Shown piece by piece: positions 37,454 to 48,300 of a stretch of DNA of 64,000 nucleotides (the stretch's first letter is position 1; the number at the start of each line of letters is the position of its first letter). Location: positions 32,001 to 96,000 of the IMG/VR virus record IMGVR_UViG_3300049595_001870; one strand, written 5' to 3'. The translations under genes were made by a program, and so were the position numbers. The notes beneath the pieces are model-generated. The model searched no databases. It saw nothing but the letters and a program-made list of their open reading frames with translations, and had not been told where the DNA came from. Origin of the DNA: a virus.

Positions 37454-37892
37454 TGGACGCCGGTTCGTTCCTATCGGATTTGCTTCTGCTTACTGGACGA
37501 CGGCTCGTCCTTGCTGCCCGCTTCGGGGGCCGCCTCTTGCCGCCAGTTCTCCACGCCCTCATGGAAATGCCACGCCGCTCACGCATGATGCCGACAAGAA
37601 GCTGGTACTTAATCCGTGTATCAAGCACCCTCTTGCCTCCTGCCCACTCAACATCGGCGTGGCACTCCCCGCACAAGCTGATCAGGCTCGTCAGCCTTTT
37701 GCCACGGAGCGTCTTGGCGTGGTAGTCGATGTGATGGACGCACACGGCCTCGCGCCCGCAGCACTGACAGGTGTGTTGATCCCTGATTCGGACTCGGGCG
37801 CGTATGGAATGCCAGAGCGGTGATGCCAAGTACTCCGCATAGGTGCGAATACCGTTTGGAAAGCTATTCAAAACGGGCATCGCACAACTCAT
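37371..37892 (-). CDS. HNH endonuclease
   Basis: YLASPLW...RDQHTCQCCG...VHHIDY...LISLCGECH. Confidence 0.75.
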   Translation of the reverse strand: MSCAMPVLNSFPNGIRTYAEYLASPLWHSIRARVRIRDQHTCQCCGREAVCVHHIDYHAKTLRGKRLTSLISLCGECHADVEWAGGKRVLDTRIKYQLLVGIMRERRGISMRAWRTGGKRRPPKRAARTSRRPVSRSKSDRNEPASSDPAVDERLAFWRGMEDWQRRNWLAAE

Positions 37893-38466
37893 CCCAGTCC
37901 GGCACAGCCTCCCGGCATTGCGCCAGGATCTCTCGGCAGAAGTCCCTCAGTGCCTCATGGTCATAGCCATCACAGCTCTGCGACATGCGGTACAGCACCT
38001 GCGCGTAGCCGGCCATGAGCGCGCAGTACGTCACCGTCTCGCGGCGGCGCTCCAGCCCAAGCTCCTGGCGGATCTGGCAGCCGCGTAGGTACGCCACCCA
38101 CTCGTCCAAGATCATCAGGGCGTTGGACTCCCAGTACTTGTCGCCGGCCTGCATCAGGTAGGTCTTGTAGATCGCACCCCTGTGATCCGGCGGAATCTGG
38201 GCGAACACCTGCGCCGTCAGCAGCGGCGGAATAGGCAGGTACTCACGCTCGCCGTGGAGCATGTAGATGCCGTGCCAGCCGGCACGCCGGCCGGTGGCCA
38301 GGAAGTGCGAACTCTCATGCCCCCACGTGACCGGGCACGGTTCCCAGGCAGGGCAGTCCTCCGGCAGGCGAGACACCAAATCCCGGAGCGTTGGCGGCAT
38401 CGCCTCGGCCGGCTCCCAGAGAACCGGCAGCTCAATAGCGACGGCAAGCATCATGGCGCCCCACAT
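37864..38466 (-). CDS. Hypothetical protein
   Basis: 200 aa; TWGHESSH may be a metal-binding motif. Confidence 0.5.
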   Translation of the reverse strand: MWGAMMLAVAIELPVLWEPAEAMPPTLRDLVSRLPEDCPAWEPCPVTWGHESSHFLATGRRAGWHGIYMLHGEREYLPIPPLLTAQVFAQIPPDHRGAIYKTYLMQAGDKYWESNALMILDEWVAYLRGCQIRQELGLERRRETVTYCALMAGYAQVLYRMSQSCDGYDHEALRDFCREILAQCREAVPDWDELCDARFE

Positions 38467-39146
38467 ACAGGACCATTGCTCGCCAAGGGCCCTGGCGTGC
38501 GTTCAGACGGCCGTTCGCCCTGGACGGGTGTCCACAGGCCGGGGACTGAGATCGGGCCGTACGCCCACTCTGAGGAGCCGCTGGCGTCGAAGGACGACGA
38601 CTCCGATCGGTAGACCTCCTCCTGCACCCGGTAGCCACGGGAGCGTGGGTCTGGGCTGTCTCCAACAAAGTACCCATCCTTCCACGCCACACGGTTTGTC
38701 GGCAGGGCCGCCAGCCTGCCCGTCGCCAAGGCCAGTACATGTGCGCACTTGGCCTGCTCGGGGCGGGCCAGCCAGCCCGGCGCCGACAGTGAGTCGGGAA
38801 GCCAATCGACAGTGAACAGGTACTCGCCTGGGATCGGGCCACGCCGCGTGTAGCACACGGCCTCATGCTCCAGCAGGTAGGCAAAGACCGTCACCACCGG
38901 GCGAAATGAAAAACAATCCCAGAGCTGGCAGTTCTCCAATTCCTCAGTCGCTGCGCCCTCACGCAGGGCCAGTGCATGGATCGGTAGATTGCGGAAGTGC
39001 GCGCCGCTCTTGAGCATTACATGAAATGCCAGGGCCCTGGCCGGGTAGCTCTGTATGGCGAATGCGTAGCCCTCCTCCTGGCCAGGGCAGCCAGTGGTAA
39101 AGCTGTTGTCTACCCAGACTCGCAGGTATGGGATGTCAGCGTTCAT
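38451..39146 (-). CDS. Conserved phage hypothetical protein
   Basis: Start MNADIPYL at 39146; FHVMLKSGAHFRNLPIHAL and QLWDCFS motifs. Confidence 0.55.
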   Translation of the reverse strand: MNADIPYLRVWVDNSFTTGCPGQEEGYAFAIQSYPARALAFHVMLKSGAHFRNLPIHALALREGAATEELENCQLWDCFSFRPVVTVFAYLLEHEAVCYTRRGPIPGEYLFTVDWLPDSLSAPGWLARPEQAKCAHVLALATGRLAALPTNRVAWKDGYFVGDSPDPRSRGYRVQEEVYRSESSSFDASGSSEWAYGPISVPGLWTPVQGERPSERTPGPLASNGPVCGAP

Positions 39147-39420
39147 ACGTAATCGGCCGTATTGATCCGTGTTTCGTCCGCTCCAGCAGTCCGTCGATGA
39201 CCGCCGCGATCTTGTTGCACTGCACATCGTCCTCGTAGGCGTATATGTCTCGCACTTCCCGCAGGACGGACCGCTCCGCGTCGGTGAGCCGCAGCCGCCT
39301 TATTTCTTCTTGCAGCCATGTGTTCGCCGCCGACAGCCTCGCCGTAGCCATGTGCGTGTTGTGAGAACCAGCGGATGCAAGAGACGGCTCGGCCGCGTCT
39401 CGCGTGTTGTCAGTGTCCAT
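39136..39420 (-). CDS. Small protein starting inside attC-like site 1
   Basis: 94 aa; AGGAG SD and ATG lie within the repeat; N-terminus MDTDNTRDAAEPSLASAGS. Confidence 0.6.
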   Translation of the reverse strand: MDTDNTRDAAEPSLASAGSHNTHMATARLSAANTWLQEEIRRLRLTDAERSVLREVRDIYAYEDDVQCNKIAAVIDGLLERTKHGSIRPITYER

Positions 39421-39454
39421 ATCTCGCCGCTCCTGATCCTTGGCGTTCTGTGGC
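39361..39454 (+). repeat. attC-like recombination site 1
   Basis: GTGAGAAC-cagcg-GATgCAAGAGaCGGC...GCCGCTCCTGATC-cttggc-GTTCTGTGGC; 86 bp AGAAC to GTTCT; two extrahelical bases; 5/6-nt unpaired spacer. Confidence 0.8.
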
Positions 39455-39705
39455 TACTTGCGAGCCTCGCGGATCGCCTTTGCCATCGCATCTTGGATAC
39501 GCGGCGGTATCGGCACAGCCTGCGACTGAATCGCCTTCGGCTTCCTGCCGTAGACCAAAGGCCACACTCTCCAGTCGGCTCTGGTGTCTGCAATCAGCAT
39601 TCGCGCAACAGCATCGGCGTCCTCTTCGCAGCGAAATATCTCATGGTGGTGAAAACGCTCGCCAACGCGAACCACTGCATACGCAACGGGGGTGCGATCA
39701 CTCAT
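39454..39705 (-). CDS. Cassette A cargo protein (hypothetical)
   Basis: 83 aa; stop codon abuts site 1; start coupled to the site-2 leader peptide. Confidence 0.6.
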   Translation of the reverse strand: MSDRTPVAYAVVRVGERFHHHEIFRCEEDADAVARMLIADTRADWRVWPLVYGRKPKAIQSQAVPIPPRIQDAMAKAIREARK

Positions 39706-39707
39706 GT

Positions 39708-39782
39708 CTATACTCCGTTCGCCACAGAACCAGCGGATGCAAGAGACGGCTCGGCATCGTCCTGCGTGTTGTCATCGCTCAT
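39708..39782 (-). CDS. 24-aa leader peptide encoded within attC-like site 2
   Basis: Manual translation MSDDNTQDDAEPSLASAGSVANGV; AGGAG SD; TAG-AC-ATG coupling to 39705. Confidence 0.5.
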   Translation of the reverse strand: MSDDNTQDDAEPSLASAGSVANGV

Positions 39783-39815
39783 AGTTCGCCGCTCCTGATC
39801 CTTGGCGTTCTCACG
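39721..39815 (+). repeat. attC-like recombination site 2
   Basis: GCCACAGAAC...GTTCTCACG; first 30 and last 26 nt of the 86-bp core identical to site 1. Confidence 0.8.
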
Positions 39816-40221
39816 TTGTATCGCCGGTGCCCGGCACGGGTCGCGTCACGGGTTTATCAGTCCCGCCGCTGCCGTGTCCGCCACCGGGTTCCCCAGTTGC
39901 GGAATCTGTTCGGGCTGTCGCCGCCGGCGCGGCGTCATGATTTGTGTCAGAAAAACTCATGCGGTTTTCTTTCGGCGTGAGAACCACGCGCTGCAGCGGA
40001 CCCGCGATGGCGTCGGTTGGTTGTGGTTTCGTCAGCGGTCGCGGGCCGCTGATCTTTGGCGTTCTGTGGCTCACCTCGTCATCCACATGAGGCCAAGATT
40101 CGCTGTGCTGTAGCTCATCCACACCAGAAAGCCAGCCGGCGATCCTCGCCACAACTGTTCGATAGCGACGACGAAGTAGATGATGGCGACGATGAACACT
40201 AGTGGCGCGCTCATTCATCAC
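39811..40221 (-). CDS. ORF reading through site 3 (or 49-aa cassette B peptide from ATG at 39960)
   Basis: 136-aa open frame; TGA stop lies in the outer end of site 2. Confidence 0.4.
   Translation of the reverse strand: MMNERATSVHRRHHLLRRRYRTVVARIAGWLSGVDELQHSESWPHVDDEVSHRTPKISGPRPLTKPQPTDAIAGPLQRVVLTPKENRMSFSDTNHDAAPAATARTDSATGEPGGGHGSGGTDKPVTRPVPGTGDTT
39976..40070 (+). repeat. attC-like recombination site 3
   Basis: CGTGAGAAC-cacgc-GCTgCAGCGGaCCCGCG...CGCGGGCCGCTGATC-tttggc-GTTCTGTGGC; diverged stem but same 86-bp length and extrahelical G/A positions. Confidence 0.8.
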
Positions 40222-40229
40222 CCCACGTG

Positions 40230-40838
40230 CTAATTAGCTTTGCCTTCGCCATCGCCAGCTCCCTCTCCAGCTTTGCTATCCTCTCCCGCAACGTAGCGTT
40301 CAACTGTTTCAGTCGCTCCACCTCCCGCTGCGAATGCTCCTGCCTCTCCATCAATCAGTCCCAGCTTGTGACGCGGATAAAGAATCTCCAACAACGCGCT
40401 TGCCGGCCGTAAGAATTTCTTCGGAGCCTCCAGAATCGGCACCTCATGGCCACGCTCTCGGTCGGTCGTCTTTCCCTCTTTCCATGAGTCGTCTCTGTCC
40501 AAGATCGTCAGCCACACCCATGCCCCGGTCGGCTTGGAAAGAAACACGTAGATCAGATTGATGTGGCTTTCACGCTTCATGCCGCGCAAGTCATCGACAT
40601 ACACGGTGTCATACGGAAAGGACTCCGGCCCATCGAACTTCAGCGACCGCTCTTTCACTTCGATCGCCACCACGGCTGCGGCGTCTGGCGTATCGACATG
40701 TCCGGTGCGCTTGCAGTGCCTCTTGGCGACGATCTTGCGACCATGCGCCACCGCGCACCCGATCTTGCGCATCGTTTCCACCCACTTGCGTTCCGCGCGC
40801 TGGCCTTTAGCCAGCGCTACGGAAAATGAGCGCGCCAT
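40230..40838 (-). CDS. PD-(D/E)XK-like nuclease-fold protein
   Basis: KGQRAERK...TPD...IEVKER pattern; start assumed at MARSF. Confidence 0.45.
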   Translation of the reverse strand: MARSFSVALAKGQRAERKWVETMRKIGCAVAHGRKIVAKRHCKRTGHVDTPDAAAVVAIEVKERSLKFDGPESFPYDTVYVDDLRGMKRESHINLIYVFLSKPTGAWVWLTILDRDDSWKEGKTTDRERGHEVPILEAPKKFLRPASALLEILYPRHKLGLIDGEAGAFAAGGGATETVERYVAGEDSKAGEGAGDGEGKAN

Positions 40839-41376
40839 TGCGATTGGCTCCGAAGAATTGCCGAATGGCAGGATTCGTCTGGCAGACATCACGCCCACGG
40901 AGTACGCCCATCGCCTGCACCCTGGCGCAGCGATGACGAATCACATCTGGCATCGGATCGGTCTTGGTTATGTGACCGACGAACCAGCAAAGCTCCTCCG
41001 GGATTGGCTCGGCCTCCTCAAACTCGGCGCGGTGCGCACGCACCTGAAAGCCCCAGCGGGTGGTCCGGCCAAAGATGTCGCCGATGTCTTCATCCGTGAG
41101 AGTCGGATCGTTCATGGCTATGCAGGCCAGGCGCTCGTCGCTCGGGCAGCGACGGCAGTGCAGGTGGATGCGGATGATGGACTCAAACGCCTGCTCGGCT
41201 TGCTGGCACTGCTCGGCAACTTTTGACACACCCTCACGGTTGATCAGCACGCGGCGAAACACCTCGCGTGCGAAACCCAAGCAGTGATCCAATCGCCTCT
41301 CGCCACGTTCGCTTTTTTGCACGGGGACCCTCCTTGTTTTCGACCTGCGGAGCCGCCGGCCACGCATGATCGACAT
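40807..41376 (-). CDS. Hypothetical protein, possible HTH
   Basis: 189 aa; LTDEDIGDIFGRTTRW segment. Confidence 0.45.
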   Translation of the reverse strand: MSIMRGRRLRRSKTRRVPVQKSERGERRLDHCLGFAREVFRRVLINREGVSKVAEQCQQAEQAFESIIRIHLHCRRCPSDERLACIAMNDPTLTDEDIGDIFGRTTRWGFQVRAHRAEFEEAEPIPEELCWFVGHITKTDPMPDVIRHRCARVQAMGVLRGRDVCQTNPAIRQFFGANRNGALIFRSAG

Positions 41377-41426
41377 CGAACACCTCCCGAAGAATCACAT
41401 CAGCCGTCTGGTCCAGCAGCAGGTCG

Positions 41427-42323
41427 TTACGCTGTTCGTCCATCGATCGCATCTCCTATGCTGGTCACGCCACGCTTGCGCTCCTTGGAACGCACGTACT
41501 CGTCTCGCATGCGGGCGCGCTTCCAAGACTCGTATTCGCCCGCTGTCATCTCGCGGCCGGCGTCTGGCCGGAACACGGCACGCGGCGCCGCAGGAGCAGG
41601 CTCCGCCTCCGCGTACTCCTGAGCGCGGGACAGCCACGCCTTGAGGGCTCGGTTCCAGTCCGTCTTGCGTGCGTAGCCGCGGTTGCTCACGGCGTGCGCG
41701 TGGCACCGGGCCAGCTCGCGGTCGATGTCCACACGCGGGAAGGCTGCCCTCCAAGCCGACCGGGAGATTTCGCAGACCCCCTCAAAGCCGCCTGCCGCCG
41801 TCCAAGAAATCTTTGCAGCAGCGGGCGGACGGATTTTCGTCCGCCTCCTAATACTCTTAAGAGTATCTGGTTCTGGTTCTGGTTCTGGTTGCAGGTTGTT
41901 GACAGGGTTGACAACAGGGTTGTTGACAGGGTTGTTGACAGGGTTGACAACAAGGTTGACAACAGGGCTGGCGGGCAGTCCTTTGGCCGACCTAGCCTTG
42001 GCGACGGCCGATACCTTGCGGTCATAGGCACCCTGCTGCTTGGCCCGCTCTGCCTCCAGCCGGGGGTGCGACAGCCGCTCCTCGCTGGTGCCAGCGTCTA
42101 GGACCACCAGACGCCGCCTACAGACCGCCCAGTCTTCTGGCGACATGCCGCCCGCGATCCGGCAGCACGCCTCCATATCGTTCGGGAGGCCGCTGGAATC
42201 CCAGGCGTACAACAAGAGCCGCATGTACCCCCCAAACTGGGAGCAGGTCATGTCGGCGCAACTGGCCAGGATGTCGCGGGTGTAGACCGGCATCCAATTG
42301 AGTCCCATATCACAGTCCTCCAT
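41427..42323 (-). CDS. DUF1376/YdaU-type replication initiator
   Basis: WMPVYTRDILASCADMT...GGYMRLLLYAW...LPND N-terminus; (NPV)-repeat and PEPEPE linker. Confidence 0.75.
   Translation of the reverse strand: MEDCDMGLNWMPVYTRDILASCADMTCSQFGGYMRLLLYAWDSSGLPNDMEACCRIAGGMSPEDWAVCRRRLVVLDAGTSEERLSHPRLEAERAKQQGAYDRKVSAVAKARSAKGLPASPVVNLVVNPVNNPVNNPVVNPVNNLQPEPEPEPDTLKSIRRRTKIRPPAAAKISWTAAGGFEGVCEISRSAWRAAFPRVDIDRELARCHAHAVSNRGYARKTDWNRALKAWLSRAQEYAEAEPAPAAPRAVFRPDAGREMTAGEYESWKRARMRDEYVRSKERKRGVTSIGDAIDGRTA
41894..41965. repeat. Six 12-bp tandem repeats (GGTTGTTGACAG / GGTTGACAACAG), putative iterons
   Basis: Inside initiator gene, next to palindrome ATACTCTTAAGAGTAT (41851-41866) and hairpin GGCGGACG-N6-CGTCCGCC (41824-41845). 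Confidence 0.7.
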
Positions 42324-42331
42324 GGTGAATG

Positions 42332-42388
42332 AAACCCCCGGGGGCGCAGGAGGTAGGGGAGGCGAAACCTCCGCGCCGCACCCGGGGG
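42332..42388 (-). terminator. Branched GC hairpin between ssb and initiator (terminator or attenuator)
   Basis: CCCCCGGG outer stem with inner GGAGG-TTTCG-CCTCC; only a short U-tract. Confidence 0.45.
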
Positions 42389-42391
42389 AGT

Positions 42392-42778
42392 TCAGAAAGG
42401 GATTCCGCCGTCGTCTTCCTCAAACTTTGGCAACGCCTTTGTGGCGGCCGGCTTTGCTGGCGCAGCAGCCTTGGGTGGCGGCGGCGACATGATCTGCACA
42501 GACTGGACGGTGCAGACAAACGCAGACTTCTCCGCGCCGTCCTTGCCAGTCCACTTCTGCTCTTCAATGCGGCCGGTGAAGGCGACGCGCTGCCCCTTGG
42601 TGAGCAAGGCCAGAAGCCCTGCCGGGCACTCCCAATGCTCACAAGTCAGCCAAGTCGTCTGGTCATTCCGGCCGCCGATCGCCACGCGATAACGGCTCTT
42701 GGTCTTGCCGTTGATGTCCCGGCTCTCTGCGTCACCGCCCAGCCGCCCGGTGAAACAGCACACGTTCATGTCAGCCAT
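42392..42778 (-). CDS. ssb: Single-stranded DNA-binding protein
   Basis: MNVCCFTGRLGGDAE, TTWLTCEHW, LTKGQRVAFTGRI and acidic tail DDGGIPF. Confidence 0.92.
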   Translation of the reverse strand: MADMNVCCFTGRLGGDAESRDINGKTKSRYRVAIGGRNDQTTWLTCEHWECPAGLLALLTKGQRVAFTGRIEEQKWTGKDGAEKSAFVCTVQSVQIMSPPPPKAAAPAKPAATKALPKFEEDDGGIPF

Positions 42779-43403
42779 TGACCACCTCCTCGGCAAAAGC
42801 CCGCTCGTACGCCTGCTCCGCACGGTGGAGCAGCTCCTGATCGACCTCGCCCCGCTTGGCGAACAAACGGAACTTGTCCAGCAGCCGCTGCGACAACTCC
42901 GCGTTGCGTTCCGCCAACGCCTTGCGCAGTTCGTTCTCCGTCGCAGCCGCCTCCAGCACGGCCCGTGGGTTCTTCGCCGCCGGCTTCACTTCTTGCGGCT
43001 GAGACACGGCGTTGGCGTCGTCGTCGTCGCAGCCACTCAGGGCCCCGGTGAGGCAGATCAGCAGCATGCGATGGGCGTAGGTCAGCGCGCTTTTAAAGCC
43101 CTGCATGTCCTGCTTGGAGAAAAACAGCGGTACCGACGCATTGATCTCCTCGCCGCTCCTGTGCCGCAGGCACCCCTCCGCAAACCACAGGCCGTCCACC
43201 AGCCGAGGATGGACGGTCATCGGAGCGAAGCCGTTGGCCGTCAGCGCCTCGGAGATGGCCGCATCGATGTCGCCAACCGTGCTATACGGAGTACCGCGTG
43301 GGTTGGACGGACCTTTGAAAAACGTGTTCAGCCCGCTCTGCTTGGGCTGCCGGAACTGCTGCTTGGCCTTGGCCAGGGCAGCGACGATTGCCTTCTCCTC
43401 CAT
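42771..43403 (-). CDS. ERF-family ssDNA annealing protein
   Basis: ALAKAKQQF...N.FF...YSTVGDI and QGFKSALTYAHR...DDDDAN. Confidence 0.8.
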   Translation of the reverse strand: MEEKAIVAALAKAKQQFRQPKQSGLNTFFKGPSNPRGTPYSTVGDIDAAISEALTANGFAPMTVHPRLVDGLWFAEGCLRHRSGEEINASVPLFFSKQDMQGFKSALTYAHRMLLICLTGALSGCDDDDANAVSQPQEVKPAAKNPRAVLEAAATENELRKALAERNAELSQRLLDKFRLFAKRGEVDQELLHRAEQAYERAFAEEVVNG

Positions 43404-44251
43404 CAGTACACCTCCTCCTTGTTGCGAACCCACGCCGGAATCTCCAGCTCCCTGATCTCCCCGTGATCCAGCGGCAGGTACTCACCTGTCGCCCTCCGCA
43501 GACGAATCAACTCCATCGTTGACAGCATTCGCTCGCCGCACTCAGCGACGTAGTCATGCGGCAGGTAGTACACATGGCATGCGTACGGAGCCGCCGTCTG
43601 GACAAACACAAACGGCATCCGGAACGGACCCATTCCGATGGCCATGGCGCCGTTGACATACAGCCATTCCTGCTCGCCGTAGCCGTAGTCAAAGACCGAG
43701 CGATAGAGCTGGTCCCACTTGGCACTGGTGGTTTTTAGATCCCACCACCTGTCCTGGCAGCAGCCGTCCGGACGAACCTTCAGTCGGTGGCCCTCAAGAT
43801 CAAAGAACACGCTGACCTGCGTCTCGGTGGTGTTCTCCACCAGATCGCGGGCGGCGCTGTTGGCCATGAGCGAGTCCAGCATCTTGCTGTACTGCTCGCA
43901 CTGATCCTGCGTGCAGACGATCACGCCGATCTGCTCGGCCTCCCACGCCTTGTAGGCGTTGGTGCTGCGCGATCCGTTGGACCCCAGCACCTCTTTCGGC
44001 GGGACGCGGATCTGCTCCGCAAGGGTCTTGCCCTCGCAGACGCCTTGGACGATCTGATCGAACTCGCTGCCTCGCCTAGTGGCAGAGTTGCCTGAGAAGA
44101 GCGAGTTGCCTGCGTCCATCCACTGCTGTACCTCGCCGCCACCTTTGGCCACCGCCGAGATGAATGAGCGGCTGTCGAATCCCTTCAGTCGGTGGTATTC
44201 TTCCCCCGGCATGCCGATGACCTTAGTCGGCAGCTTGTCAATGCTGTGCAT
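43403..44251 (-). CDS. Exonuclease VIII-like PD-(D/E)XK nuclease (RecE/DUF3799 type)
   Basis: EEYH, SRS, TETQVS, KVRPDG...WDLKTT, YGEQ..Y; paired with ERF. Confidence 0.8.
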   Translation of the reverse strand: MHSIDKLPTKVIGMPGEEYHRLKGFDSRSFISAVAKGGGEVQQWMDAGNSLFSGNSATRRGSEFDQIVQGVCEGKTLAEQIRVPPKEVLGSNGSRSTNAYKAWEAEQIGVIVCTQDQCEQYSKMLDSLMANSAARDLVENTTETQVSVFFDLEGHRLKVRPDGCCQDRWWDLKTTSAKWDQLYRSVFDYGYGEQEWLYVNGAMAIGMGPFRMPFVFVQTAAPYACHVYYLPHDYVAECGERMLSTMELIRLRRATGEYLPLDHGEIRELEIPAWVRNKEEVY

Positions 44252-44543
44252 TTATGCACTCCCCCTAGAAAAAGAAGCCCCGTCCATGGGGCGAGAAAGC
44301 GATCCGTCAGCCCCTCCGTAGGCGGCGGCCCTCCATGAACCAGCGGACGAACACGGGCAGCTCGCCCAGTGCGATGAGCGTCAGAACGACGCCAGTCATT
44401 TTCACAGTCAGAGCTGCGAAAATGGCGGCCATGAGGAGGCCGCGTAAGATCAGGTAGAGGCGACCAGTGCCGTGGCCAATTGAGCCACGGGCGCTTAGTG
44501 GGTAGAACCCCTCCACGGCCGGCGCTTCTCCCGGAGGAACGCC

Positions 44544-45368
44544 ATGACGATCGCGGAGCTTGCCAACAAATACTGCACCAGAGTCGGAGCCAAGGCCAGC
44601 TACGCCCACCAGTTCCGTGTCCTGACCAGACGCCTGCCTTGGCAGGTCGCCCAACTGTCCGAGGACCGAATCGACGCCTACCTGACCGATGCCCTGGGAC
44701 ATCTCGCGCCCTCCACCGTGGCCAAGCACAGAAGGATGCTGGCCTGCCTCCTCCAGTTCGCACGTAGCGAACGCCTCCTGAACAAACGCACAGTACCACG
44801 CCCCCTGCGAAGGGTCAAGTGCCCCCCGCCCAATCCGCGGGCGTGGAGCCACGCGGACATCCGTGCGCTGCTGTCGGTAGCCGAGCATCTGAAGGGCGGT
44901 ACGCGGCAATGCGCGTACTCGCTGATTGTGCCGGCGTGGATACTGGCTGCGTACAGCACAGGGCTGCGGCGCCAGGATCTGCTGGATCTGCGACATGACG
45001 CCATCCGTGGGTCTAGAGCAGCTGTTCGTCAGGCCAAAACTGGCTGGCCGCATGTCGTCAACCTTGATCCAGCCTCCATTGCTGCGATCAGACGACTCCC
45101 CCGAAAAGGACCGCGCGTGTTTGGCGATCTGATTTCGGCGGTGCAGATCGTAAGGGTAATGCGGAGACTTGTCAAGCAAGCCGGCCTGGACGGCACCGGC
45201 AAATGGCTCAGACGTAGTGGCGCAACGTATTGCGAGGCCGCGGGATACGACGCAAGCGGCCATCTCGGGCACAAGTCGCCGGGCATGAAGATCCACTACA
45301 TCGACCGGCTGCTGCTCGCGGAGATCAGGCCAGACGAGCCGCGCGTGCCGCCGGTGCTAGCTACCTAG
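44544..45368 (+). CDS. Tyrosine recombinase / integrase
   Basis: YSTGLR (R), QAKTG (K), KWLRRS (variant of HxLR), GHLGH (H), HY (Y); GGAGG SD. Confidence 0.85.
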   Translation: MTIAELANKYCTRVGAKASYAHQFRVLTRRLPWQVAQLSEDRIDAYLTDALGHLAPSTVAKHRRMLACLLQFARSERLLNKRTVPRPLRRVKCPPPNPRAWSHADIRALLSVAEHLKGGTRQCAYSLIVPAWILAAYSTGLRRQDLLDLRHDAIRGSRAAVRQAKTGWPHVVNLDPASIAAIRRLPRKGPRVFGDLISAVQIVRVMRRLVKQAGLDGTGKWLRRSGATYCEAAGYDASGHLGHKSPGMKIHYIDRLLLAEIRPDEPRVPPVLAT

Positions 45369-48300
45369 CAGCAGCGCCATCGGATCCTGCTGATCGCGCT
45401 GGCGGGCGCGTTTCGCGGCATCGGACTGGATCGTCCTGTACAGCAAGTACAGGCGCCTTTGGTCTGGCGTCAGGCGATCCAGAGCGTCCTCGGGCACGGT
45501 GATGTTCTCGTACGTCCGGACGCCCGGGGTGGTGGAGAGCGTGGCGTTAAGGACTTGGCGGGCCGCCTGCTGGCGGGCGCGATCCTCATCCACATCGCTC
45601 AACTTTAATCCGGCCAACAGATTGAACGCGGTCTTCATCAGCGCATCGCCGGGCGTTAGCCGATCGTCGGTGAGCTGTCGGTAGGTGCTGATGGCGCGCG
45701 ACCCAAACGGAATGAAATTACTGGCGAACTGCTCCAGCGGGCGGCCGATCGGTCCCAGTCCCTGCTCCAAGACCGAATACAGGTCGGACAGATCGCGGCC
45801 AGAATACAGTTGGCGATTGGTGGCGTATTCGATCGGCGCTTTGATGAGCGGCGTCGTCTGTCCGAGGATGTTGCTGCCTGTCTTGGCAAGCGTGTCGGCA
45901 AAAACGGCCGCCGCAGTTCCGCCTGCCCCAGGCGTGAAGAGGTTAATGGACTCAAACGGCAAGTCGATGTTGGTCAGATACCGCTGGAGCCCCTCGCCGG
46001 GCGACCAGCCTTCCGGCAAAGGGATCGCGGCCGTCTGCCGCAGATGCTCGGGGACGAAGTTTTCTTCGCTCGGCTCCGACGCCCGGGAGATGGCGCGGAT
46101 GCTCTGACCTTGCAGTCCGCCCGGCTGATACAAAAGCCGATCAGCGATCTGCGGGATAATTCGTCGCTGAAAGCTATAGAAGGGCAGGATTTTCTTCAGC
46201 CAGCGGCTCTCAAAATCGCTGAAGCTGGCCGGGCTGTAATCCAACTGAGCAAGGCGAACGGCGTCTCCGGCGGCGCCCGGGTCCGTGCCTCGCCGTATCT
46301 GCGTGAGGAACGCGCCGGTTCTGAGCGTGTCTTCGACCGCGCTTCCGACGGCGTCGTTGATCTTAAGTATCGGGTTTGTGTTCGTCGGGCGCGGCCTGCG
46401 CAAGACGCCGACGCCTCGCAAAGAGGTGAAGTCGTTGAAGAAGTCCAGCCAACTTCTTCCGGTCTGGCCACGCAACTCACCAACGGTGCTGGAGATTGTG
46501 TCGGACTGTCCGCCAGTGTAGGTGGACCGCATCGCCTCTTCGGGGATCGACAAGTCGTCGATGACGTTTCCGCTGGCCATGCGCTGTCCGCCGGTCTGCG
46601 CAAGGAATTCGCGGATGCGTTCTGCGTCTGTGAGCTGTTCGTAACCAGGCGCACGGCGAAGCCTTCGGGCAAGCGGCTGGTAGTTGCCCTGGCTGGCGCG
46701 GTAGGCTGCGAACTGATCTAGTGGGTTGAACATCCCAAACGCGGCGTTGGAGAATTCGCCGCTGTACAAATTGCGCGTGTGGAACGCCGGGTTCGCCAGT
46801 GCGCCGACTTTGAATGCATTGGTGAACTGCTGTATGGCGCCCAGCAGCCCGGCCTCGGCTTCCGGAACACGCGGGCGCACTGCCAGAGTCTGGAGGGATT
46901 GCACAAGCCTGTCTGGTACGGACACGGCCGCCGGGTCCGAGCTGACCTGCGATTGCCACATGGCTTTGAACGACTCTCGGTTAAACCCGAGCGCCTCGGC
47001 GGCATCCAGCACGCTTTGCGCGCCGCCGCCCGGCACGGAGGTTGGCGGCAACGGAATGACGGCCTCTTGCAGCGCCGGCACTATCTCGGCCACGTTGGAT
47101 GTGACACGCATGCGCCCTTGCTCATAGCGGCGCAGGCGATCCATGTAGTTGGTGTCAAAGAGTCCCGTGCCGGTTTCTGCAAACTGCCTGTCGGCGTCAC
47201 GCAAGAGATCAACGAGGGCCGTTTCCTTGCGTTCGATGTCCTCCGTCACCCGCTGCATCATCCGCCTTTGACGGCGAGGCGTGGCGTTGAGGTAGTCCGG
47301 AGAGTTCTGGAGCCGGCGCAACTGCGCCTGGTACGGCCTCTCTACGTTGAGCGTGTCGAAAGCCTGCCGCAGTAGCACGCGGGCGTTTGTGTCGTCGGCG
47401 GCCAGGAGACTGTCCTGCAATTGCCGGGCGTTCAGGTTCGGATCGCCGCCCGTAAGCCTGCGGAAAGTCCGACTGGCGCCTGGGATGTCGGTGTAGTCCC
47501 GCCTGCCACGGCCGAAGTTGTCGTTGGTGGCGAGCAGCACATTGCCAGGAGAGTACGGGCTGGCGGTGCGCTGGGCGGCGTTCGCTCGCTCTGGAACCTG
47601 TGGGTCCAGCCACTGCTTTACTTGGCGCACAAACCAATTCTCGCCCGTGGACCCACGCCAGCCATCCAGCTCTAGCCCTAAGTCTCTGGCCAGACGCTCC
47701 ATTTCTGGCCCGACTTGTACGCCGGCGTCCCGGAGGACACGGAACTCAGGCACGTTCTCTAGAACCCAGTCGGCAACCGGGTCATAGCTTGTGCGGCCCA
47801 GCGGAGCGCCGGACATCGACGGCCCTAGCAGGTCTGGCGACTCCACGTAGTCCGTGAGCGCGTTTTGAATTGTCCGGTTGTTGAAGTTGCGGTACGCCTC
47901 TGGTATCGGAGTACCGTTCGGCATCACATCCGGAACCTGCGCGTTCATTGCATCGTAAAGCTGGCGCGTCCGCAGCGTGCCCGCCTCCTCCTGCAAAATG
48001 CGCTCGGTATTGCGGGCTACCCGGTTACGCCACTGGATCGCTGGATCCATGACGGGGCCCGCATCGGCGGTCAGCAGCGCGCGGGCGCCGGACACCAACG
48101 GGCCGATGCCTGGGGCGCTTTTGCTTGCCTCGCCTGTGCGATCTAAGAACCGCGCCAGAGAGTCGCCGGCCTGGGACATTGTTCCCGTGCCGCCGGCCTC
48201 ACCGACCGTCCAGCCAAGATTGGTGCCTGGCACACGCACATCCATCAGTGCGGCGGCGCGCTGCGTCAGATCGTCCGGATCGACTCCGAAGCGCTCGGCA

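Follow-up and report, generated by a model that had tools for sequence, protein, structure and literature searches.

What are three repeats of exactly the same length doing between the small genes of a phage early operon? The repeats lie in a stretch of 64,000 nucleotides, hereafter the window, which covers positions 32,001 to 96,000 of the 117.8-kb IMG/VR virus record IMGVR_UViG_3300049595_001870 (G000). In the window they are surrounded by minus-strand genes for a PDDEXK exonuclease, an Erf annealing protein, a DUF1376 replication protein, several small ORFs, a PHROG 'ferredoxin' family protein and HNH endonucleases, which together form the phage early region. An earlier note, made from the letters of this stretch, had proposed that the repeats are attC-like sites bounding integron-like cassettes, and that the array serves to capture and shuffle accessory genes.

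Each of the three units that the note described was recovered as an 86-nt element running from AGAAC to GTTCT, and all three were matched by R1, a covariance model that we built only from phage sites, with E values of 1e-19 to 1e-24 (Table 1). A 17-mer from the arm occurs three times in the window compared to an expectation of 0.21. On the minus (coding) strand, each unit opens at or just past the stop codon of the preceding gene. The stop codon of the 47-aa membrane-protein gene abuts the left flank of site 3, and we thus place the upstream border of the array at this gene. Sites 1 and 2 contain AGGAG and an ATG in their central part, and site 3 contains neither. The loop ATG of site 2 opens a leader ORF of 24 codons that ends at 39708, 2 nt ahead of the ATG of the 83-aa gene. 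The 83-aa protein is itself a mosaic: its core matches proteins of 62–66 aa (P0002-P0007) and its last ~27 residues recur at the ends of four others (P0008-P0011), the N-terminal parts of which resemble the 94-aa protein of the window, attC-encoded leader included.

Table 1. Positions of the predicted attC sites, their cassettes and related genes in the window.
Feature	Position	Strand	Description
Predicted attC site 1	39364..39449	-	R1 covariance model 89.2 bits, E 9e-24; loop with SD and ATG (39420) of the 94-aa ORF
Predicted attC site 2	39726..39811	-	R1 86.9 bits; loop ATG at 39782
Predicted attC site 3	39980..40065	-	R1 75.1 bits; loop without SD or ATG
Predicted cassette A, 362 bp	39446..39807	-	Site 2 hairpin, leader ORF and 83-aa gene (39454-39705)
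Predicted cassette B, 254 bp	39808..40061	-	Site 3 hairpin and 49-aa ORF (39811-39960), 58 aa if the start is the GTG at 39987
94-aa ORF	39136..39420	-	First ~19 codons encoded by site 1
47-aa membrane-protein gene	40071..40214	-	Stop codon touches the left flank of site 3
Small Xer-like tyrosine recombinase	44544..45368	+	Pfam PF00589, 27.1 bits

When the window sites were folded singly, site 3 was weakly better than shuffled sequence (z -1.5 to -2.0) and sites 1 and 2 were no better (z +0.9 to -0.1), so that the claim of a palindrome rests on the family to which the sites belong. An exact-pattern scan of IMG/VR followed by nhmmer detected this family in ~20 contigs, in which the longest array has 8 sites; extension of the loci brought the largest array to ~14 sites, and later searches added another dozen contigs. 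More than 100 copies are present in at least 25 IMG/VR phage contigs, and in a group of phages, arrays of 3 to about 14 cassettes occupy one position in the early operon. These relatives carry the same site family with different cargo in a different order. A blastn search of the INPHARED phage collection and a search of Rfam gave no match, and a pattern scan of genome contigs returned mostly chance single matches, with two real loci among the matches listed.

The fold was assessed on an alignment of 57 long copies, with slid pairing partners and 500 shuffles as controls. In this alignment 89% of stem cells are paired, compared to 30-46% in the slid controls, and 15 of the 17 stem pairs show compensatory changes (182 cells), a result reached by none of the 500 shuffles; RNAalifold independently recovers the same fold from the family alignment. 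Read on the minus strand from the base upward, the hairpin begins with a 5-bp box in which AGAAC pairs with GTTCT, followed by an internal loop whose 5' and 3' sides have 6 and 5 nt, then 3 bp, a bulged C, 6 bp and a bulged T, and is topped by a stem of 4-7 bp with a variable loop. The 6/5-nt internal loop is found throughout and the same two bulged columns are unpaired in all 57 copies. The attC architecture read from the window in the earlier note, with its AAC/GTT core, 5- versus 6-nt spacer and two extrahelical bases, is thereby seen to hold across the 57 copies, the extrahelical G and A of the plus strand being the bulged C and T of the minus strand. Site 3 was correctly described as having another stem sequence on the same geometry, and of the window sites it is the one most like the attC sites of Pirellulales chromosomes. 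The AAC and GTT triplets vary little or not at all across all 57 phage sites, and the R box is mostly AGAAC/GTTCT, not RYYYAAC/GTTRRRY.

Within the family of phage sites, length is highly uniform. Of 59 full phage sites, 33 are 86 nt long and the others are 81-88 nt, except for two of 45 nt; with chromosomal members included, lengths fall at 45-54 and 81-103 nt and the loop is variable. The short variants of 45-54 nt (L073 11195-11239, L073 14577-14621 and L231 3919-3972) keep the R box, the spacer, the L box and both bulges and lack the upper stem and loop. G-U pairs are more frequent when the minus strand is read, 10 versus 2, which, since many copies are related, supports that strand weakly. 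The layout of the hairpin is what we take, from comparison with attCaadA7, to be the bottom-strand geometry of attC, and the minus strand is presumably the recombinogenic one. Canonical attC sites have a conserved G at the proximal bulge, where the phage sites have a C on the presumed bottom strand. The features listed for attC sites are extrahelical bases, an unpaired central spacer and a variable terminal structure, with only three conserved nucleotides (PMC5371416).

The repeats might instead have arisen by local tandem duplication of a gene start, which would have produced paralogous N-termini and would have no wider meaning. Sites 1 and 2, which are 88% identical and each begin an ORF, have the look of such an origin. 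The more than 100 copies in many phages and in bacterial chromosomes do not; moreover, the 5' arm, which is not translated, covaries with the 3' arm, and site 3 is not translated in the frame concerned. With the family so widely spread and its stems covarying, we consider tandem duplication refuted and give it virtually no weight.

Further evidence for an integron-like origin comes from the ends of the units. The earlier note had observed that the outer ends of a single site mismatch but that facing ends of neighbouring sites match. In the window, the right end of site 1, GTTCTGTGGC at 39445-39454, is indeed the reverse complement of 39721-39730, and the right end of site 2, GTTCTCACG at 39807-39815, is that of 39976-39984. 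We tested this rule on 48 consecutive site pairs from 13 non-redundant phage arrays, using 10,000 permutations. The right core of one site is complementary to the left core of the next in 48 of 48 neighbouring pairs, and five variant cores obey the same rule (four GTTAT/ATAAC pairs and one GTTCG/CGAAC pair). Past the core, complementarity extends over 3.19 nt compared to 1.03 in the permutations, none of which reached the observed value. The two ends of one and the same site match at chance (0.98), and its own cores are perfect in 42 of 59 cases. We attribute the complementary neighbouring cores to a crossover that lies inside the core, as in integrons. End matching in other arrays had been named beforehand as a point on which the reading could fail; it holds for all 48 phage core pairs and extends to chromosomal arrays, where complementarity is 2.56 versus 0.82.

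We also compared the cassettes themselves between phages. The 362-bp cassette A that the end rule predicts in the window was recovered as a discrete block in other phages: it is present in five other viral contigs, and in contigs that have it, similarity to the window spans exactly 39813-39445. In L242, L243 and L246 the block is 94.7-96.4% identical to the window, and L242 and L243 are 100% identical to each other inside it over 358 nt. Outside the block the sequences are unrelated: the 60 nt on each side reach 48-80% identity, mostly 48-65%. The upstream core varies by context (AGAAC, ATAAC or GGGAC), four different downstream neighbours were seen, and the breakpoints are at the cores. Judged from these alignments, the mobile unit is a hairpin together with the gene downstream of it on the coding strand, and its limits agree with a predicted crossover between AA and C on the bottom strand. 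On this comparative evidence, individual cassettes move from phage to phage. Homologues of cassette B in other phage contigs are 51-86% identical, more diverged than those of cassette A, and some lie directly behind an attC and some do not adjoin any.

The record also contains a counterpart of the locus without an array. G000 consists of two collinear phage-like units of ~59 kb that are 65-68% identical (10.9-21.1 kb compared with 68-78 kb, the latter being 36000-46000 of the window). Sites are found only in the window unit, and its sibling has a bare junction at genome 14270-14250. There, the membrane-protein gene and the homologue of the 94-aa gene that comes after it are immediate neighbours and no attC separates them; this junction is an empty site. 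The sibling homologue of the 94-aa protein lacks the attC-encoded leader. Elsewhere, in L242, L244 and L245, the end of the array beyond its last AGAAC contains two direct repeats of GTATAAC (4258-4330 in L242), and the region downstream of a host intI (L206 1340-1608) has four GCATAA repeats. Both sets of repeats may be attI-like integrase-binding repeats, for which we put them forward as candidates.

Integrons in Planctomycetes are already on record (PMC2426708), and it is to these bacteria that the site family leads. R1 identified 13 sites in one Pirellulales MAG, which also encodes an integron integrase (TIGR02249, 436 bits versus a cut-off of 265). One contig of this MAG is a phage related to L079, and other sites are at the ends of ordinary chromosomal contigs. 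The L079-related phage G012 contig C24 (L213, L214; 42.8 kb), binned in the Pirellulales MAG, has attC sites at both ends, suggesting a circular or circularly permuted genome with an assembly broken at the array. Among the 151 Pirellulales genomes sampled, R1 matches occur in 49, with at least 26 in the richest genome among the matches listed, and IntI occurs in 30, of which 24 also have sites (Fisher p = 2e-9). IntI is detectable in only 24 of the 49 site-bearing genomes, most of these being incomplete MAGs. We fetched eight IntI-containing loci, and in every one of them the distance between sites and a TIGR02249-positive intI is 0.5-5 kb. In five of these loci (L230-L237) the array lies upstream of the 5' end of intI and in the other three downstream of its 3' end, and both the canonical divergent and the inverted intI arrangement occur within Pirellulales.

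The model has good specificity, giving in 754 kb of unrelated loci only two Pirellulales/Pirellula matches and one 24-bit match, and in a phylum-wide sample it matched 23 of 151 genomes, at lower scores. Chromosomal cores vary, and the canonical CTAAC/GTTAG is among them. The GTTCT core that the earlier note had set apart from GTTRRRY is accordingly real for the phage sites, and is better described as one variant in a family whose chromosomal members also have the canonical GTTAG. A tblastn search with the phage cassette proteins against a small sample of chromosomal arrays found no homologue, and hence no sign of exchange with host integrons in that sample. MAG bins and the one phage-like contig in a MAG point indirectly to a phage host in the Planctomycetota, probably in the Pirellulales.

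Which enzyme recombines the sites? The absence of an adjacent IntI, remarked on in the earlier note, extends to the whole record. We searched 11 array-bearing phage records for IntI and none encodes it, and none of the 11 has a complete integron, with intI, attI and Pc adjoining the array. With no IntI in the phage records, the phage array is a CALIN, a kind of element already known in general (PMC4889954). The sites could in principle be attC-like elements recombined by the phage's own Xer-like tyrosine recombinase (44544-45368), independently of any host IntI, and indeed every reasonably complete array-bearing record encodes a small Xer-type recombinase without an arm-binding domain, no phage encodes IntI, and the cassette pool looks phage-specific. 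We nevertheless think this improbable. The recombinases of the array phages are mutually only 26-31% identical, except for one at 58%, are encoded 4.5-30 kb away from the arrays and resemble ordinary phage integrases; the IntI model matches none of them, and in NCBIfam the one at 44544-45368 has weak Xer matches only and none to TIGR02249. Furthermore, the site family adjoins genuine IntI genes in host chromosomes. Of the two enzymes that the earlier note had named for an excision assay, an integron integrase and the recombinase at 44544, the likely one is thus an IntI, in the form of that of the host. As a separate observation, the gene at 44544-45368, on the plus strand, is antisense within the early operon and is overlapped by a 329-aa open frame on the minus strand, and its 58%-identical homologue in G009 is ~5 kb from an attC site.

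In one respect the phage arrays depart from what is usual in integrons, namely in the direction of their genes. With intI and the chromosomal cassette ORFs as the reference, the model strand, which is the minus strand of the window, is the bottom strand. Chromosomal ORFs run opposite to it in 44 of 48 segments when judged by frame length and in 41 of 48 when judged by GC3-GC2, whereas phage ORFs are on it in 35 of 48 segments by GC3-GC2 (p = 1e-8 versus chromosomal). A longest-open-frame test was uninformative for the phage segments, which are GC-rich (26 versus 22), and GC3-GC2 and family matches were used instead. The model-strand ORFs of the phages match phage families, with DUF551 in 9 of 48 and, in addition, HNH and Dam. 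Phage cassette genes are thus encoded by the bottom strand. They sit downstream of their own cassette's hairpin, and many start inside it; the canonical layout, a top-strand gene upstream of its attC and expressed from Pc, was not found among the phage cassettes.

Start signals follow the same division. In 38 of the 57 phage sites an ATG in the loop starts a frame of at least 60 codons, and 37 of these 38 also have an SD; only 4 of 59 chromosomal sites have such an ATG, in each case without an SD (p = 5e-12 versus phage). The ORF from the loop ATG reads the 3' arm in one fixed frame, giving a short leader rich in serine and alanine, and in phage arrays the left core is overlapped by stop codons. 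Because the genes are on the bottom strand of attC, the early transcript would read through the hairpins, and because most sites have an SD and an ATG in the loop, a site would also be a portable translation start. The SD is in the stem of many sites, so that a ribosome terminating on the upstream gene could open the hairpin, and we infer that the hairpin modulates translation.

These signals raise the question of whether the hairpins are RNA-level elements in the first place, for translation initiation or coupling or for processing, which ordinary homologous recombination between the repeats, and no site-specific process, would have spread and shuffled in the manner proposed for the PeSL elements of T4-type phages. 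The SD and ATG in the loop, the stop codons over the left core and the excess of G-U pairs on the coding strand (10 versus 2) would all fit such elements, and the phages encode Erf and an exonuclease. An RNA origin leaves unexplained, however, the complementary ends of gene segments, variant cores included, the position of the breakpoints at the core and the proximity of the family to IntI, and site 3 and the chromosomal members keep the fold although they have no SD or ATG. The core breakpoints and the complementary ends point towards an exchange that is site-specific, and we hold a purely RNA-level origin to be very unlikely; a role in RNA is probably an added function of the sites and not their origin.

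Taken together, we consider it highly probable that the three repeats are attC sites of a Pirellulales integron family that form a CALIN in the early/replication operon of the phage, with host IntI as the presumed recombinase. The earlier proposal of accessory-gene capture and shuffling gains support from the different cargo in relatives, the mobility of the 362-bp block and the integron integrases that the family adjoins. In the mechanism we propose, each site would fold on one strand as an imperfect hairpin made up of a 5-bp R box, a 6/5-nt spacer, an L-box stem of 3 bp and 6 bp split by one bulge, a second bulged base, an upper stem and a variable loop. Crossover inside the AAC/GTT core would excise and insert units of one hairpin and one gene, with host IntI most probably acting on the sites during infection or lysogeny. 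The attC site would double as a portable translation start, and its 3' arm would encode the short leader peptide.

We also lean slightly towards the broader view that a lineage of planctomycete phages maintains its own pool of inverted cassettes, which it exchanges by means of host IntI or, less likely, a phage Xer-like recombinase. If this is true, integron recombination, and not only homologous or illegitimate recombination, drives the mosaicism of early accessory genes in these phages. Integrons are usually seen as bacterial devices, and here a whole phage group carries cassette arrays. The inverted layout would make one attC both a recombination site in DNA and a translation start in mRNA, and would put the presumed recombinogenic strand on the non-template strand of a strongly transcribed operon. 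Inverted phage cassettes that entered a host integron would be antisense to Pc and therefore probably unexpressed from it, though they are expressed in the phage. Together, these features open a testable route to accessory-gene mosaicism and a new source of cassette diversity, and such sites are a natural setting in which to ask how attC folding copes with coding and translation signals.

How do the phage arrays compare with known systems? They are most like the chromosomal attC arrays of the Pirellulales/Planctomycetota family: one covariance model fits both, and both have an R box with AAC/GTT, a 6/5-nt spacer, two bulges 6 bp apart on one arm, a variable loop, hybrid R boxes within arrays and a uniform length within the family. 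They differ from chromosomal integrons in having no IntI or recognised attI, in having bottom-strand genes that start inside the hairpin, and in their cargo, which is of phage type (DUF551, HNH, Dam). The R box is nearly always AGAAC/GTTCT in the phages, whereas it is varied in the chromosomes (CTAAC, CGAAC, ATAAC and others).

Two systems of phage repeats are also similar in some respects. The PeSL 'mobile regulatory cassettes' of T4-type phages, described by Arbiol et al. in 2010, are reportedly units of a promoter and a stem-loop that are shuffled by homologous recombination. Like the phage array, they are repeated intergenic stem-loops with expression signals that flank small accessory genes in a plastic region; unlike it, they lack attC geometry and complementary cassette ends, and nothing links them to an integron integrase. 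The SAS/ESAS elements of Cluster K mycobacteriophages, described by Pope et al. in 2011, are said to be 13 bp long and defined by sequence. They resemble the phage sites as conserved repeats over the translation starts of many genes, but lack a covarying 86-nt hairpin and the cassette end signature.

The closest precedent is in phages as well. Using a canonical attC model, Qi et al. (2023, PMC9892861) found 17 CALINs in phage genomes, and phage-borne attC clusters have so far been described only as rare, small cases (PMC9892861). Those clusters share with the present arrays the lack of an integrase and a methyltransferase cargo. That report (PMC9892861) does not describe phage arrays reaching up to ~14 sites in one lineage, nor cassettes that are inverted, attC sites that contain a start codon, or one cassette common to different phages. 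Three things appear to be new here: long arrays that one phage lineage has at the same place in its early operon, cassette genes that are systematically inverted and have their start signals inside attC, and direct evidence, from comparison, that cassettes pass between phages.
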